A stretch of 60,165 nt of DNA from a virus. Its lineage: Duplodnaviria > Caudoviricetes. The DNA is taken from positions 1 through 60,165 of the IMG/VR virus record IMGVR_UViG_3300018405_000021; one strand, 5' to 3'. The position numbers and the translations under genes were made by a program. Positions within the stretch are counted from its first letter, which is position 1. Each line of letters opens with the position of its first letter. Shown in pieces: positions 2,198 to 21,729 of this stretch. The notes under the pieces are model-generated. The model saw only the letters and a list, made by a program, of their open reading frames with translations. It did not search any database and was not told the DNA's origin.

Positions 2198-2448
2198 GGC
2201 TCATCCCCTTCGATCTGGGCGACACTCCGCGCCCTGCGTTCAAGCGTCTGCATGGCTTGCAGATAAATACGGACGCCGTTGAAAAGCTGCTTGGCAACCG
2301 CTGCCCGCGCTAGGCCGTCTTGCGCGCTGATTTTCTTCTCGCGCATGTCGGTCAAGTCCTGAGACAGACCGCGAATGACGCTTTGCAAATCCAGGCTGTC
2401 ACTCACGGGTGATGTTTCGTAATCTCTGGGCGTCATGTCTATCTCCAC
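2194..2448 (-). CDS. Hypothetical protein
   Basis: Operon packing. Confidence 0.6.
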   Translation of the reverse strand: MEIDMTPRDYETSPVSDSLDLQSVIRGLSQDLTDMREKKISAQDGLARAAVAKQLFNGVRIYLQAMQTLERRARSVAQIEGDEP

Positions 2449-2708
2449 GGGTGCGCTTGACGGTATGCTTCATGGTCGAGCGCAGCGGCCAGAGCGCTTA
2501 TCTGTGTGGCGATACGCCGGTCACGAAATGCGCCTTGCGTCGGCGGGGTAGCGCCGTAGTTCCGTTCGCAGTTCTTGCATACCGGAGCGATTTCTCTGTG
2601 CCGACCATTGTCCCACCATACAGGGGAAATCTCGCGCTGGCATATAACGCATGTGAATGAAGGCTTGCCGCTCACTTCTCCATCCTCGCGATTTGATCGT
2701 TTACCCAT
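2439..2708 (-). CDS. Hypothetical Zn-finger-like protein
   Basis: CVIC...CKNC pairs; start uncertain. Confidence 0.5.
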   Translation of the reverse strand: MGKRSNREDGEVSGKPSFTCVICQREISPVWWDNGRHREIAPVCKNCERNYGATPPTQGAFRDRRIATQISALAAALDHEAYRQAHPWR

Positions 2709-2854
2709 GCCATGCGGACAGGATTGCGGTGATGAGTGCCTTCTTCTGCATCGATATCGTAGCGACCACCTTCATCAAAAGGGGTAATGGTGGATGGAAG
2801 GGACCTCTCAAAAGCAATCAGTATGGGGCGAATATCATCATCTTCCCGTGTCAT
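2672..2854 (-). CDS. Hypothetical protein
   Basis: ATGA overlap with the upstream ORF. Confidence 0.5.
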   Translation of the reverse strand: MTREDDDIRPILIAFERSLPSTITPFDEGGRYDIDAEEGTHHRNPVRMAWVNDQIARMEK

Positions 2855-3054
2855 TTCGATTTCTCCCTGTCTTTCTCGTGCATGTAGGCACGAACCACGT
2901 TGCGAAGGCCGAAGACAACGCCAGCAGCTTTATCTACCGATGCCTCTTTGTGGACGGACGCAAACCGTTCCATCTTTGCGACGAGGCGATCCATTTCCAG
3001 ATCGAGTTGGTCAGCGTCTTTCTGCTTGAACGTTCTGTATCCGCTATGCGTCAT
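2851..3054 (-). CDS. Hypothetical protein
   Basis: ATGA overlaps on both sides. Confidence 0.6.
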   Translation of the reverse strand: MTHSGYRTFKQKDADQLDLEMDRLVAKMERFASVHKEASVDKAAGVVFGLRNVVRAYMHEKDREKSK

Positions 3055-16778: not shown

Positions 16779-17767
16779 CAATCAATTGCGTTAACCAAGT
16801 CGTTACGGATCGATACGCAATCTATGAAGGAGATGCTTGCGAGTTGATCAGAGAAGTCCCAGGAGACAGCGTCCATTTCGGCATTCACTCTCCTCCATTC
16901 GAAGGACTTTATAGGTTCAGCAACTACGACCGCGACATATCAAACAACGACGGAGAAAGCTTCTGGTCGCACTATGGATTTCTGATTTCGGAACTCCTAC
17001 GAGTTACGAAGCCGGGCCGCGTCCATAGCGTTCATTGCATGCAGTTGCCTACTAGCAAGACACGTCATGGGTTCATCGGCATGAGGGACTTTCGAGGTGA
17101 GATTGTACGGGCATACGAGGACGCAGGATGGATTTTCCATTCCGAGGTTTGCATTTGGAAAGACCCTGTTGTCGCGCAGCAACGCACGAAATCAATTCGT
17201 CTACTCCACAAGCAGATCGAGAAGGACAGCACGATCAGCGGCATGGGCCTTGCTGACTACATCGTCAGTTTCCGCAAGCCGGGGGATAACGAAAAGGCCG
17301 TATCTGGCATGTTCGAGCTGTGGTCTGGTGATGATAGCTTAGACGTAAGCCGTGAAGCGTATGACCGCCACAGAAAGCAGGTCGAAGCCGAAGGAAAGAG
17401 CGCGTGGCCGTTCGACAAATGGCGGTCCATCCTCATCTGGCAGCGATATGCATCCCCGGTATGGTCTGATATTGACCAGACGAACACTCTTCAATATCGC
17501 GGTGGTCGCGACGAGAAGGATGAACAGCACATTTCTCCGCTTCAACTCGACGTTATCGAGCGTTGCCTTAGCCTGTGGTCTTTGCCGGGCGAGACTGTCT
17601 TGACGCCGTTTCTTGGGATAGGAAGCGAGGTTTACTCTGCCGTTAAGATGGGTCGCAAGGGCGTCGGGTTTGAGCTAAAGCCGTCGTACTTCCGGCAGGC
17701 CGTGAAAAATATCAAAGAGCTTGACCGTGACGAACCTGCATTGCTTTTCGGGGCTGTTAACCAATGA
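16775..17767 (+). CDS. N4/N6 amino-DNA methyltransferase (beta class)
   Basis: HSPPF catalytic motif before the TPFLGIGSE SAM-binding motif. Confidence 0.9.
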   Translation: MTINCVNQVVTDRYAIYEGDACELIREVPGDSVHFGIHSPPFEGLYRFSNYDRDISNNDGESFWSHYGFLISELLRVTKPGRVHSVHCMQLPTSKTRHGFIGMRDFRGEIVRAYEDAGWIFHSEVCIWKDPVVAQQRTKSIRLLHKQIEKDSTISGMGLADYIVSFRKPGDNEKAVSGMFELWSGDDSLDVSREAYDRHRKQVEAEGKSAWPFDKWRSILIWQRYASPVWSDIDQTNTLQYRGGRDEKDEQHISPLQLDVIERCLSLWSLPGETVLTPFLGIGSEVYSAVKMGRKGVGFELKPSYFRQAVKNIKELDRDEPALLFGAVNQ

Positions 17768-19230
17768 ACGCGCACCAAAACTTCACTGCTGATCAGCGGC
17801 GCGACCTGCCGGGGAACATCGAAGCAGAACAAGCCGTCCTCGGCGCGGTTATGGTCAACAATGCCGTCCTTGGCGCGGTCATGTCCCGCGTCAATCTGAT
17901 GGCGGAACACTTCTACGAGCCGATCCACCGCGACATTTTCGCGGGGGTCATTGACTTAGCCGCGCATGGCAAGCCGGTAAACCCAATTACGCTCATGCCG
18001 TACTTGCCAAAGGGACAGATGGTTTCGGGCGACATGAGCGCGGCGCAGTACCTTGCTAGGCTGTCCATGGGCACGGTGTCTATTGCACAGGCCCCATTCA
18101 TCGCGGAGAGCATTGTCGCCGCTCACGCCGCCCGTGAGGCGATTTATGTGTCGGACGAAGTGGCAAACGAAGCATATAATCGCTGGCATGAGGCAGGCTT
18201 CATCGATGCCATCGGAAAGCTATCTACGCGGCTTGTAAACGCCGCTGAGAGCGCCAAGGCAACGGAGAGGCAAAGGCCCGGAGACGCTTATATCGAGCGC
18301 TACAGTGCCAGCGCGGGGGCCACTGGCGTCAATGGTGTTTCTATCGGCCTTGTTGCCTTGCAGAAAGTCCTGAACGAAACTGTGTTCGAAGCGGGAAACC
18401 TGTATGGCCTTCTTTCGTCGTCAGGCGAAGGAAAAACCAGTTTAACGCTGCAAATCATCTTCCATGCAATCACAACGGGTCACCCGGTTCTATTCCTTTC
18501 CTATGACCAATCTGCATCGCAATGCGTTGCCCAGATGGTCGCGCAGAACAAGGGGATCAGTACGGCGCAGCAGAAGACGCCAGAGCGCGGCATGAGCCAG
18601 CATGAACGGGATACTGCCCTTGAATTCGCTGTCTGGATCAATTCTCTTCCTCTGGATATCATCCGTTGCCAGCGCGAGGGGAATGCGCGCCTCATGAACT
18701 ACGCAAAACAGTTCATCACGAAATACCGGGCGAAATACAGCAAGACGCCGCTTGTCGTGATCGACCATATCAAGAAAATCCGGCCCCGCGATGACCGTAT
18801 GTCGCCTGACAAGATTGCCGGCGAGATCAACGTGGAATGGAAGTCATTCGCGGATGAACAGCAGAGCGCCGTTCTCATGCTGAACCAGCGTAACACGGAA
18901 GGCACGCGGCGCATGAACCCACGTCCCATCGGGAAAGACGTGTACGGTGGCGAGGGCGCAAAAGAAGATTATGACGGGATGATTTACCTCTATCGCCCCG
19001 CGAAGTACAAAAAAGACCTTCTGGACACGGCGTCCAGCGACCGGGAACGCGGACAGATCAATGCGATCTTCGCGGAATTCGGGGATGAAGACGCTATCAA
19101 GACAGTGGCGGAAATCGGCGCTATCAAGTTGCGGTTCGGTGACCCATCGATACGTGAGAGAATGCAATTTGAGGCGCGGTATACGCGCTACAAATGCGAA
19201 GAGGACGACGAAGAGAGGATGATGTTTTGA
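17764..19230 (+). CDS. dnaB: DnaB-like replicative helicase
   Basis: NIEAEQAVLGA...HFYEPIHRDIF, SSGEGKTS, VVIDH, LNQ. Confidence 0.85.
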   Translation: MNAHQNFTADQRRDLPGNIEAEQAVLGAVMVNNAVLGAVMSRVNLMAEHFYEPIHRDIFAGVIDLAAHGKPVNPITLMPYLPKGQMVSGDMSAAQYLARLSMGTVSIAQAPFIAESIVAAHAAREAIYVSDEVANEAYNRWHEAGFIDAIGKLSTRLVNAAESAKATERQRPGDAYIERYSASAGATGVNGVSIGLVALQKVLNETVFEAGNLYGLLSSSGEGKTSLTLQIIFHAITTGHPVLFLSYDQSASQCVAQMVAQNKGISTAQQKTPERGMSQHERDTALEFAVWINSLPLDIIRCQREGNARLMNYAKQFITKYRAKYSKTPLVVIDHIKKIRPRDDRMSPDKIAGEINVEWKSFADEQQSAVLMLNQRNTEGTRRMNPRPIGKDVYGGEGAKEDYDGMIYLYRPAKYKKDLLDTASSDRERGQINAIFAEFGDEDAIKTVAEIGAIKLRFGDPSIRERMQFEARYTRYKCEEDDEERMMF

Positions 19231-19284
19231 AGGGGTGCATATTTCAATGAAATCGCGAACGACGCGGAGGACCTTTTCGGATGA
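19227..19284 (+). pseudogene. Orphaned original 5' end of the C5 methyltransferase
   Basis: GGT GCA TAT TTC AAT GAA ATC (GAYFNEI) duplicates AYFNEI at the start of the 19696 gene. Confidence 0.65.
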
Positions 19285-19724
19285 CAGTTGAACAGCGATT
19301 TAGAGCGAAATTTATCGCCGATGAAGACACGGGCTGCTGGAACTGGACGGCATGCAAGCAGCCGACCGGCTACGGAAACATGTGGAACGGCCAGCGCGTC
19401 GAGCAGGCACACCGGATCGCGTACCGACTGTTCTGCGGCCCCATCCCTGAAGGCCGCGAGATTGATCACGTATGCCGTAATCGCGGCTGCGTTAACCCTG
19501 ATCATCTGCGCGCCGTGACGCACCGCGAGAATATGCGGGTCAGCGACACGGTAATGGGCAGGAACGCCGCGAAGCTATTCTGCAAACGCGGCCATCCTTT
19601 CAGTGGACAAAATCTATTCATCTCGAAGTCCGGCGCGCGACAATGCCGGACTTGCATAAACATGCACGCCAGAAACGCAAAACGCAGGAGAAAAGATGGT
19701 GGGCAGACCGCTGGCTTACTTTAA
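19281..19724 (+). CDS. HNH homing endonuclease
   Basis: GCWNWT...GYG...AHRIAY...IDHVCRNRGCVNPDHL...EN, CKRGH...CRTC. Confidence 0.92.
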   Translation: MTVEQRFRAKFIADEDTGCWNWTACKQPTGYGNMWNGQRVEQAHRIAYRLFCGPIPEGREIDHVCRNRGCVNPDHLRAVTHRENMRVSDTVMGRNAAKLFCKRGHPFSGQNLFISKSGARQCRTCINMHARNAKRRRKDGGQTAGLL

Positions 19725-20745
19725 TGAAATAGATCCATACGCCGCGCAATGGCTGAGAAACCTAATCGCTGCTGGTCATATCGCGCCAGGCGACGTTGAT
19801 GAACGGAGTATTGTTGATGTCCATCCAGACGACCTTAAAGGATACACACAGTGCCATTTCTTCGCCGGGATCGGAGGGTGGTCATATGCCTTGCGTCTCG
19901 CAGGATGGCCCGATGACCGACCTGTTTGGACAGGAAGTTGCCCATGCCAGCCGTTCAGTGTCGCAGGGAAAGGCGAAGGTAAAGCCGACGAAAGGCATCT
20001 CTGGCCGGTCTTCTTCGCACTCATCCGTGCCAGACGGCCCGCTGTCGTCATGGGAGAGCAAGTTGCGGCTGCGGTTGGAAAAGATTGGCTCGACGGAGTG
20101 CAATCTGACTTGGAAAGTATCGGCTACGCCTGCGGGGCGGCTGTTGTCCCGGCTTGTGCCGTCGACGCGCCCCACAGAAGAGATCGCCTCTGGTTTGTGG
20201 CCCACCCCGACACTCCCAAACGGCGGGAGGTCGATAGCCTGCGCGGACGAATGGAGGGGCAACACGCCATATCACAAGGGAAAGAAGCTGCAAGTGGACC
20301 TTTCTCAGACCGTCAGGATGGTCGAGGGGGTCTCATTCTGGCCAACACCGAGAGCTGTGGACGGGGACAAGGGGCAGAGAACCCCTGCGGGAGTGATGGC
20401 CGAACTGAAGAGAAAAGGTCGGCTGGACGATCTCCCCTCAACGGCGGTGGCGCTCTGGGCGACACCGAAGGCTTCGGACGGCAAGGGGAATATCTATCTT
20501 CCGGAACCGGATTGCAGGCGCACGGAGCTTCGGAAGCAGGTCGGCGGAATAGCACTGCATGGTCAGGAGCAGAGTTCATCGTCGGCGCAGACGGGAAAGC
20601 CCGGCGCGTTGAACCCGGAATTCGTCTGCTGGCTCATGGGGTTCCCGGCAGAGTGGGAAAGCTGCGCGCCTATGGCAACGCCATCGTCCCGCAGGTTGCG
20701 GCGGAAATCATAGGCGCATACATGGATATCAACGATGTCAAATAA
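19696..20745 (+). CDS. C5-cytosine DNA methyltransferase, alpha polypeptide
   Basis: FFAGIGG (I), GSCPCQPFS (IV), GEQV (VI-like), HRRDRLWFVA (VIII), YGNAIVPQVA (X); no motif IX in this frame. Confidence 0.9.
   Translation: MVGRPLAYFNEIDPYAAQWLRNLIAAGHIAPGDVDERSIVDVHPDDLKGYTQCHFFAGIGGWSYALRLAGWPDDRPVWTGSCPCQPFSVAGKGEGKADERHLWPVFFALIRARRPAVVMGEQVAAAVGKDWLDGVQSDLESIGYACGAAVVPACAVDAPHRRDRLWFVAHPDTPKRREVDSLRGRMEGQHAISQGKEAASGPFSDRQDGRGGLILANTESCGRGQGAENPCGSDGRTEEKRSAGRSPLNGGGALGDTEGFGRQGEYLSSGTGLQAHGASEAGRRNSTAWSGAEFIVGADGKARRVEPGIRLLAHGVPGRVGKLRAYGNAIVPQVAAEIIGAYMDINDVK
19796..20713 (+). CDS. Overlapping +1-frame beta polypeptide of the C5 methyltransferase (start uncertain)
   Basis: 305 open codons inside the alpha gene; three W[P/A]TP modules and LNPEFVCWLMGFPAEW (motif IX-like). 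Confidence 0.75.
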   Translation: MMNGVLLMSIQTTLKDTHSAISSPGSEGGHMPCVSQDGPMTDLFGQEVAHASRSVSQGKAKVKPTKGISGRSSSHSSVPDGPLSSWESKLRLRLEKIGSTECNLTWKVSATPAGRLLSRLVPSTRPTEEIASGLWPTPTLPNGGRSIACADEWRGNTPYHKGKKLQVDLSQTVRMVEGVSFWPTPRAVDGDKGQRTPAGVMAELKRKGRLDDLPSTAVALWATPKASDGKGNIYLPEPDCRRTELRKQVGGIALHGQEQSSSSAQTGKPGALNPEFVCWLMGFPAEWESCAPMATPSSRRLRRKS

Positions 20746-21046
20746 GTTCAGCTTCGGGGCCATCCCCGCGAAAGGCGGCTTCATCGCCTACTATCGCATG
20801 GTGCATCGATCCGATAACTTCGTTTTGCGATCTGGGCGGCACGATATAATTTTCGCCACGCATCACGAGGCATATAAGGCCGCTGGCGATGCGTTTGTTG
20901 CATACCTAAACAGCCCGATAAGCGGGATGCGATTTGCAGCGGAGGAAGCGATGAGCAAGGCAGACGCACTGTTTAACCTGCCGCCCACGGTCAAGCAGCG
21001 CGGCAAGACAAAGCCTGTATTGGTCGAAAGGAAGGTGAGCGCATGA
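20735..21046 (+). CDS. Hypothetical protein
   Basis: Operon packing. Confidence 0.65.
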   Translation: MSNKFSFGAIPAKGGFIAYYRMVHRSDNFVLRSGRHDIIFATHHEAYKAAGDAFVAYLNSPISGMRFAAEEAMSKADALFNLPPTVKQRGKTKPVLVERKVSA

Positions 21047-21729
21047 GCCAGTTATCTATCCCTTTTGCTAATCCGCGAAAATCACTGACGAGAGAACTTC
21101 GTGTTCTTGTGGCGTGCGAATTTTCGGGGACTGTACGCAATGCATTTCTTGACAGAGGGCATGATGCATGGTCGTGCGACCTGTTGCCGGCGGAAGATGG
21201 AAGCAACCGCCATATCACTGGTGATGCGCGCGATATCCTGAATGATGGATGGGACATGCTCATCGTGGCGCATCCGCCATGCACACGGCTTTGCAATAGC
21301 GGTGTTCGGTGGCTGTCTGTCCCGCCGCCCGGCAAGACTGTTGATCAGATGCATGATGAGCTTCGAGAAGGGGCTGAACTGTTTTCGGCTTTCTGGAATG
21401 CGCCGATTGACCGCGTGTGCGTTGAGAACCCCGTCATGCATCGCCATGCAAAGGCGTTGATCGAAAACTACAATGAACCGGCGCAATCTGTGCAGCCTTG
21501 GCAGTTTGGCCATGGAGAGGTAAAGCGCACTTGCTTTTGGCTTCGTGGTCTCCCGGCGCTCACGCCAACGAACATTGTTGAAGGGCGTGAGGCGCGCGTT
21601 CACCGCATGCCCCCCGGCCCGGATCGACGGAAAGAGCGGAGCAGGTTCTTCACGGGAATTGCCGCAGCCATGGCCGACCAGTGGGGAGAATATGCAGTCA
21701 ATCAATTCCATGAGGAGATTGCAGCATGA
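21043..21729 (+). CDS. Short C5-methyltransferase-like protein
   Basis: VLVACEFSGTVR, AHPPCT, VENP, QPWQFGH...KRTCFWL, GIAAAMADQW. Confidence 0.8.
   Translation: MSQLSIPFANPRKSLTRELRVLVACEFSGTVRNAFLDRGHDAWSCDLLPAEDGSNRHITGDARDILNDGWDMLIVAHPPCTRLCNSGVRWLSVPPPGKTVDQMHDELREGAELFSAFWNAPIDRVCVENPVMHRHAKALIENYNEPAQSVQPWQFGHGEVKRTCFWLRGLPALTPTNIVEGREARVHRMPPGPDRRKERSRFFTGIAAAMADQWGEYAVNQFHEEIAA

Follow-up and report, generated by a model that had tools for sequence, protein, structure and literature searches.

Can one stretch of phage DNA encode, in two overlapping reading frames, the two chains of a single DNA methyltransferase? The question is raised by a locus in the virus record IMGVR_UViG_3300018405_000021, which was analysed over its whole length of 60,165 bases (the window) and has an estimated completeness of 79%. 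The main frame of the locus (frame 0, positions 19696..20745, plus strand) encodes a protein of 349 amino acids (aa), here called alpha, which has the features of the catalytic chain of a C5 cytosine methyltransferase. A second open reading frame (ORF) of the plus strand is nested in the alpha ORF and is shifted one base to the right (+1). It is open over 305 codons (19796..20713). Its putative product, here called beta, would have 298 aa when translated from the ATG at 19817 (19817..20713). The guanine-cytosine (GC) content of the studied stretch is 62%.

The locus is quite likely to encode a two-chain C5 DNA cytosine methyltransferase of the M.EcoHK31I kind from this one stretch of DNA, with the recognition part carried by beta. 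M.EcoHK31I (Escherichia coli HK31, YGGCCR) is a two-polypeptide C5 methyltransferase (Lee, Kam and Shaw 1995, as described in PMC2836561 and PMC3404938). According to the parts of these two papers that were available, the enzyme needs both chains and its beta lies wholly within another frame of alpha. Its alpha carries motifs I-VIII and X together with a target-recognition domain (TRD) assigned by prediction, and its beta carries motif IX (PMC2836561, PMC3404938). Two separate chains were demonstrated, alpha alone was inactive and beta started at several in-frame Met codons (PMC2836561). An earlier note on this DNA, made from the sequence only, had named this precedent and had described it correctly.

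The probable catalytic chain in the main frame

An AGGAG is located at 19686-19690, upstream of the alpha ATG. Alpha contains FFAGIGGW (motif I, 19858-19881), PCQPFS (motif IV, 19942-19959, aa 83-88), GEQV (motif VI, 20053-20064), HRRDRLWFVA (motif VIII, 20173-20202) and the helix GNAIVPQVAAEII (motif X, 20674-20712), all on the plus strand. These motif names are the ones we take to apply, and the alignments with M.HhaI and Dcm span motifs IV to VIII only. Pfam PF00145 matched alpha over aa 79-170 only (1e-18, 68.3 bits, cut-off 22). E. coli Dcm was aligned to the same part by hhalign with a probability of 90.8%. The family phrog_363, 'DNA methyltransferase', matched aa 5-347 (6.9e-87). The catalytic Pro-Cys of motif IV is present, as PCQPFS aligned with PCQAFS of HhaI and PCQPFS of Dcm. 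GEQV aligned with ENV and HRRDR with QKRER of HhaI. The variant residues, Q for N in motif VI and H for Q in motif VIII, were conserved across the family. FFAGIGGW and GNAIVPQVAAEII were near-invariant and confidently modelled and lie outside the significant Pfam, HhaI and Dcm alignments. G327 and N328 of GNAIVPQVAAEII were invariant.

A model of alpha was built with 45 sequences. The blocks of the core (residues 1-170) had predicted local distance difference test (pLDDT) values of 61-97, most of them above 84. A C-terminal helix was placed at 332-346, with a pLDDT of 91 for the block of residues 331-340. The top Foldseek matches of the model were M.HhaI ternary complexes (E 6e-8), over approximately 170-195 columns that correspond to the catalytic domain. 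As modelled, alpha has the C5 methyltransferase fold.

Residues 188-287 of alpha (20257..20556, plus strand) are the frame-0 reading of the module region described below. They are predicted to form a disordered linker, with pLDDT values below 50 and no secondary structure in the model. Gly made up 20% of residues 170-290, and Arg, Ser, Ala and Glu were abundant. Column entropy over residues 170-290 was 2.5-3.2 bits compared to 0.6-1.4 bits in the core, and the linker contained many gaps. To our knowledge monomeric C5 enzymes all carry their recognition domain, along with motif IX, in the interval from motif VIII to motif X. Neither was found on alpha in this interval, where aa 188-287 were unconserved and predicted to be disordered. 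The conserved sequence in the DNA of the alpha linker was that of the +1 frame. The earlier note had read motifs I-VIII and X, with a low-information middle, in the main frame. The motif sequences are present in this frame, the names of motifs I and X being those we presume, and the composition, entropy and model of the middle bear out its description.

A second open frame with its own start signals

A word-indexed protein search with beta returned 763 homologues at E<=1e-3, nearly all of which had no name and a length of 250-340 aa. With a beta profile, a full HMMER search matched 33,701 cluster representatives at E<=1e-3; at E<=1e-30 there were 8,312. Beta was matched by phrog_1008, 'DNA methyltransferase' (2.8e-30), and by nothing in NCBIfam. 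The nearest ESM Atlas clusters were unnamed and consisted mostly of viral 'hypothetical protein' entries.

Within 19886-20710 of the window no stop codon interrupts alpha or beta. The third sense frame contains eight stops over the same span and the antisense frames contain 7, 4 and 4. To extend the comparison 80 viral and 80 genomic loci, selected by similarity to beta, were fetched and were scored with three annotated phage loci (163). The offset between the best alpha and the best beta match was +1 in 162 of the 163 scored loci; it was 0 in locus L117. For the 152 distinct loci in which beta matched nearly in full, openness was counted along that match. Alpha was free of stops in 151 of them and beta in 149; a stop-free third sense frame was seen in none (1225 stops). 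The antisense frames were free of stops in 1, 10 and 0 loci. The openness of alpha is the independent test here, because the loci had been picked by beta. A tblastn search of 50,697 phage records placed alpha and beta matches at the same sites, always at an offset of +1. Six annotated phages had the same layout and motif distribution, among them Paenibacillus phage Shelly (46% GC in this stretch) and Lacticaseibacillus phage R23.9 (48%). By these counts the double openness exceeds chance. The earlier note's 305-codon +1 frame, with LWPTP, FWPTP, LWATP and LNPEFVCWLMGFPAEW at the positions it quoted, was confirmed in the window, and the frame was found to continue uninterrupted in close and distant homologues.

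It could be argued that chance or a high GC content accounts for the openness of the second frame, or that the gene is a decayed, frameshifted pseudogene. The GC content of 62% would suit such an origin, as would the breaks in a single frame that were seen in a few relatives (L064, L111, L116, L117, L126 and L131). Against this, the third sense frame was open in 0 of the 152 loci, and the layout persisted at 46-48% GC. The modules showed third-position wobble in the beta frame and synonymous choices avoided +1 stops, as detailed below. This explanation was tested, found to be unsupported and is considered barely credible.

The likely start of beta is the ATG at 19817, rather than the TTG at 19796. 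A Shine-Dalgarno-like GGAG (19805..19808, plus strand) lies 8 nucleotides (nt) before this ATG, in alpha codons R37-S38. The nested frame of the earlier note is open over the 305 codons it had stated, and its start probably lies further in. Codon use and constraint were analysed in 132 loci, made up of 131 of the 160 fetched loci and the window; incomplete or interrupted alpha or beta matches and duplicates were left out. A +1-frame ATG was present at alpha D41/V42 in 93 of the 132 loci. The Asp codon at D41 was GAT in 97 cases and GAC in 19, compared to 1102 GAT among 3060 Asp codons overall. R37-S38 spelled GGAG in 72 of the 132 loci. AGG made up 51 of 131 Arg codons at R37 against a background of 245 of 3937. 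Judged by this codon use, the beta start signals are selected within synonymous sites of alpha. A second candidate start was also observed, with a GGAGG (19872-19888 region, alpha motif I codons G-I-G-G-W) located 8 nt before the ATG at 19886. Initiation at 19886 gives the 275-aa beta product that was called in the source assembly. The in-frame ATGs that could start beta are those at 19817, 19886 and 19913.

The first 85 aa of beta (19817..20071, plus strand) form a tail rich in Ser, Gly and Pro. Its most variable position was beta codon position 2 and its pLDDT was approximately 50. Over alpha codons 42-125, 127 of the 132 loci had no stop in the +1 frame and 17 had none in the +2 frame. Alpha NTN codons ended in A or G in only 5 of 382 cases before a codon starting with A, compared to 219 of 1046 before codons starting with C or T. 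On these figures synonymous-site choices avoid +1 stops, and the tail appears as a sequence that is unconstrained yet held open.

Also considered was a single polypeptide that arises through two programmed frameshifts, a +1 shift behind motif VIII and a -1 shift behind the motif IX-like block. It would restore the sequence I-VIII, TRD, IX, X, and the constrained zones do follow the canonical motif order along the DNA. Such a product would have no need of a beta frame that is open, with an ATG and a GGAG, approximately 380 nt upstream of the first module. It would likewise have no need of an alpha frame that is open through the whole module region. No conserved slippery site was noticed on reading both junctions, a formal scan not having been made, and M.EcoHK31I consists of two separate chains in the available part of PMC2836561. 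Programmed frameshifting was rejected on account of the upstream beta ATG and GGAG and of the two frames being kept open. The ATG, the GGAG, the open tail and the avoidance of stops fit independent initiation of beta and make the double-frameshift single chain very unlikely.

Constraint along the two frames and the W-x-T-P modules

Constraint was followed along the locus by column entropies and by pairwise differences at each codon position. The pairs are phylogenetically non-independent and the values are given as patterns, with no P-values. Over alpha codons 10-120, 54% of the differences fell on alpha position 3; here alpha appeared constrained and the beta tail behaved as a passenger in sequence. 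Over alpha codons 121-156, where beta reads GSTEC..LTWK.. (the hairpin), the shares were 0.34/0.29/0.37 and both frames appeared constrained. Alpha was again constrained at motif VIII, where 57% of the differences fell on alpha position 3. In the modules, 222 related pairs gave 751/876/2211 differences at beta positions 1/2/3. This is the pattern of ordinary purifying selection in beta, and none was visible in alpha. The motif IX-like zone was flat (0.37/0.29/0.34). At motif X 51% of the differences fell on alpha position 3, consistent with constraint on alpha. The comparison shows constraint that seems to pass between the frames, lying on alpha over motifs I-VIII and over motif X, on beta over the W-x-T-P modules, and being mixed at the hairpin and the motif IX-like block.

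The conserved parts of beta agree with this distribution in position. The segment GSTECNLTWKVSATPAGRLLSRLVPS (20087..20164, plus strand), in the zone constrained in both frames, is predicted to form a beta-hairpin with strands at 96-103 and 109-116 and a block pLDDT of up to 91. The invariant columns of the hairpin region were G, S, T, E, L, W, T and P. Near the end of beta is the motif IX-like block LNPEFVCWLMGFPAEW (20609..20656, plus strand), referred to as the LNPEF block. L265, P267 and W272 of this block were invariant in 45 sequences. Helices were predicted in it at 267-273 and 278-282, with block pLDDT values of 75-84. Beta was better predicted at the helix of residues 76-90, in the hairpin (96-116) and in the LNPEF helices.

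Three modules lie between the hairpin and the LNPEF block, all on the plus strand. Module 1 (WPTPTLPNGG..., 20198..20338) has 47 aa and is of type T7, module 2 (WPTPRAVDGD..., 20339..20455) has 39 aa and is of type T19, and module 3 (WATPKASDGK..., 20456..20602) has 49 aa and is the last before the motif IX-like block. The motifs at the module starts are LWPTP at 20195-20209 (W at 20198), FWPTP at 20336-20350 (W at 20339) and LWATP at 20453-20467 (W at 20456). Among the 132 beta proteins 3, 15, 46, 52, 15 and 1 contained zero, one, two, three, four and five W-x-T-[PAT] units, respectively. The median module length was 41 residues.

Modules were typed at 75% identity and 85% coverage, an arbitrary threshold. 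A first clustering by single linkage at 55% identity had lumped 230 of 338 modules into one cluster and was dropped. The sequences of type T0 (WSTPSG...) come from the hairpin region, which the pattern also picked up, and do not represent a module; T0 was left out of the 222-pair count and kept in the architectures. Some types occurred at varying ranks, T2 at ranks 1, 2 and 3 and T6 at ranks 1, 2 and 4. Type T7 of the window occurred five times, at rank 1 or 2, and T19 of the window was also found at rank 1 or 2. Types T3, T9 and T10 were seen first only and types T4, T5 and T12-T14 last only.

Module architecture differed in 69 of the 70 locus pairs in which alpha codons 10-168 were 90% or more identical at the nucleotide level, a figure that overstates exchange given that identical genes had been removed beforehand and that the typing threshold is arbitrary. 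Loci L100 and L105 were 100% identical over alpha codons 10-168 and differed by the insertion of one module. Loci L011 (T3-T13) and L017 (T3-T1-T2-T54) had 99.2% identity. Insertions and deletions of whole modules are plain in these alignments. The modules had been proposed in the earlier note to be swappable target-recognition units that could give multispecificity. The range of 0-5 units per beta (n = 132) and the different sets on near-identical backbones support swappability at the comparative level. One Bryobacterales metagenome-assembled genome (MAG) carries at least five copies of the locus (L100, L101, L105, L109 and L117), of which L117 has a frame break. The catalytic parts of L100, L105 and L109 were 97.5-100% identical and these copies differed by one middle module, which suggests cassette turnover among prophages of one genome.

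A further step would be to regard each W-x-T-P module as recognising a target by itself. This would make the enzyme multispecific, with a set of targets that is reprogrammed by the exchange of cassettes, readable in both frames, between phages and even between prophages of one genome. This extension is tentative and is judged to be on the doubtful side. If it were true, each cassette would be a folded recognition unit in beta and a harmless, stop-free, disordered linker in alpha. Dual coding would then house a fast-evolving library of anti-restriction specificities and would be no frozen accident.

The proposed two-chain enzyme, its relatives and its meaning

In the two-chain reading, ribosomes starting at 19696 would produce alpha, with its S-adenosylmethionine (AdoMet)-binding and catalytic domain (motifs I-VIII), a disordered linker of approximately 100 residues and the motif X helix that would close the catalytic domain. 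Separate initiation at 19817 in the +1 frame would produce beta, with an unconstrained tail, the conserved hairpin, three W-x-T-P modules of approximately 40-50 residues in place of a TRD, and the motif IX-like helix. The two chains would assemble into one enzyme as in M.EcoHK31I; their association is proposed because of this precedent and of their complementary motif content. The enzyme would methylate phage DNA, probably escaping host restriction in this way. The modules behave as cassettes that related phages gain, lose and exchange; the length of each cassette has to be divisible by 3 nt, and its alpha frame has to contain no stop. The proposed architecture is well supported by comparison. 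The translation of both chains, their binding to each other, the reading of DNA by the modules and the biological role are what we infer from it.

Several observations count against this interpretation. Expression of both chains is predicted from sequence alone. Selection of the loci by beta similarity partly builds in the openness of beta, the 152 loci are phylogenetically non-independent and all of them have a GC content of 56-72%. The aligned beta start site had no ATG in 39 of the 132 loci. Beta alone was poorly modelled, with a mean pLDDT of 57.5 and a predicted template modeling score (pTM) of 0.23. Pfam searches at E<=10 with 45 of 45 beta members gave scattered single chance matches and none to PF00145, and the beta profile had 0 matches among PDB sequences at E<=10. 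The sole hhalign match of the beta profile with E. coli Dcm was weak (44% identity over 18 columns, E 0.4, probability 0.14%). It paired beta 261-278 (KPGALNPEFVCWLMGFPA) with Dcm 398-415 (RPRRLTPRECARLMGFEA), which we take to be motif IX of Dcm, and gives weak support for the LNPEF block as a putative motif IX. Lastly, the TRD of M.EcoHK31I is described as part of its alpha, whereas the variable region here, with its three modules, appears to be selected in beta (PMC2836561, PMC3404938, available parts).

The lack of detectable similarity between beta and the methyltransferases of Pfam or PDB would be expected if alpha alone were the working methyltransferase and the +1 protein a separate accessory protein, or an unrelated phage protein that arose by overprinting. 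The catalytic motifs and the C5 methyltransferase fold on alpha would also agree with this. Between motifs VIII and X, however, no segment of alpha is conserved or folded in the model, and the only conserved and selected protein in that DNA is beta. The terminal block of beta aligns, weakly, with motif IX of Dcm as assigned above. M.EcoHK31I alpha was inactive alone in the available part of PMC2836561. An alpha that works alone is held to be improbable. Fused single-chain forms were sought among longer proteins; five matches were obtained with PF00145 in none of them, which is weak evidence that fused forms are rare.

The two-chain reading can also be placed among known systems, M.EcoHK31I being compared by its published description and not by sequence. 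The beta ORF is nested in alpha in another frame in both cases and several in-frame ATGs are available for beta. In M.EcoHK31I motif IX is separated from motifs I-VIII and X (PMC2836561, PMC3404938, available parts), and the division here would be alike if the weakly matched LNPEF block is motif IX. The earlier note had inferred the same architecture as in M.EcoHK31I. The nesting, the two open frames, their separate zones of selection and the beta start signals uphold this; the variable region departs from it, being constrained in beta and not in alpha. M.EcoHK31I sits in a restriction-modification system, whereas the present gene is a phage gene for which no nuclease partner was identified. 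M.AquI is encoded by two subunit genes that lie next to each other and do not overlap; the split falls within the variable region and leaves motifs IX and X on the small chain (PMC3404938, available part). The locus resembles it as a C5 methyltransferase of two chains and differs in that the genes overlap and motif X is on alpha. The multispecific C5 methyltransferases of Bacillus phages (SPR, phi3T and rho11s type) carry tandem TRDs in a single chain and one frame. The present locus is similar to them in having several tandem units of approximately 40 residues between motifs VIII and IX, in numbers that vary between related phages. It differs from these single-chain, one-frame enzymes in its two frames and probable two chains; the likeness described is one of layout, and multispecificity here is a conjecture.

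The phage families phrog_363 and phrog_1008 show the same nesting, +1 offset and motif distribution, and the window gene differs from them only in its set of modules. Some nested pairs are already annotated in GenBank, namely ORF29/ORF28 of K1ind2 ('Mte8-like'), those of PhiXhv-5 and gp55/gp56 of Paenibacillus phage Shelly ('g55 internal gene'). Most phage records list just one of the two frames. No description of the phage family as a two-chain enzyme was found in the available parts of the literature on EcoHK31I, Mte8 and phage or overlapping-frame cytosine methyltransferases (PMC2836561, PMC5582158, PMC6070908, PMC11855218, PMC9957025 and PMC3404938, supplements excluded). The part of PMC11855218 that was available reports a hidden out-of-frame HNH in an actinophage methylase and no nested recognition chain.

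The alpha gene is preceded by a DnaB-like helicase gene (17764-19230) and then by an HNH endonuclease gene (19281-19724, plus strand; PF13392, 3.8e-18; phrog_826, 6.9e-49), the 3' end of which overlaps the alpha start by 29 nt. A 103-aa ORF without a family match (20735-21046) lies between the alpha gene and a second methyltransferase-type gene, which is located approximately 300 nt downstream at 21043-21729 (plus strand). The product of this gene matched phrog_757, 'DNA methyltransferase' (6.6e-61), and had no Pfam match. In the closest viral relative, L005, a second two-frame methylase directly follows the first. Its alpha-like frame (2270-3040) has 256 codons and its beta-like frame (2376-3014) has 212 codons, both measured from stop to stop. 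This second methylase is much shorter, and its recognition region differs and lacks W-x-T-P units.

Textbooks treat long overlaps on one strand, with both products belonging to one enzyme, as rarities, and M.EcoHK31I is usually mentioned as a curiosity. The window gene is typical of a family of the M.EcoHK31I kind that is very large and under-annotated, and the result is confirmatory. This family holds tens of thousands of called beta-frame proteins, and its members keep the overlap in phages that range from those of Bacillota to cyanophages. Most annotation gives one frame or labels the other 'hypothetical'; one locus should yield two coding sequences. For phage biology the locus points to an anti-restriction methylase with a recognition subunit that is hypervariable and built from cassettes. 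As an evolutionary case it offers a natural system in which the sharing of constraint could be measured, in the relay of dominance between frames, in a start codon and Shine-Dalgarno sequence placed in synonymous sites, and in the avoidance of stops.

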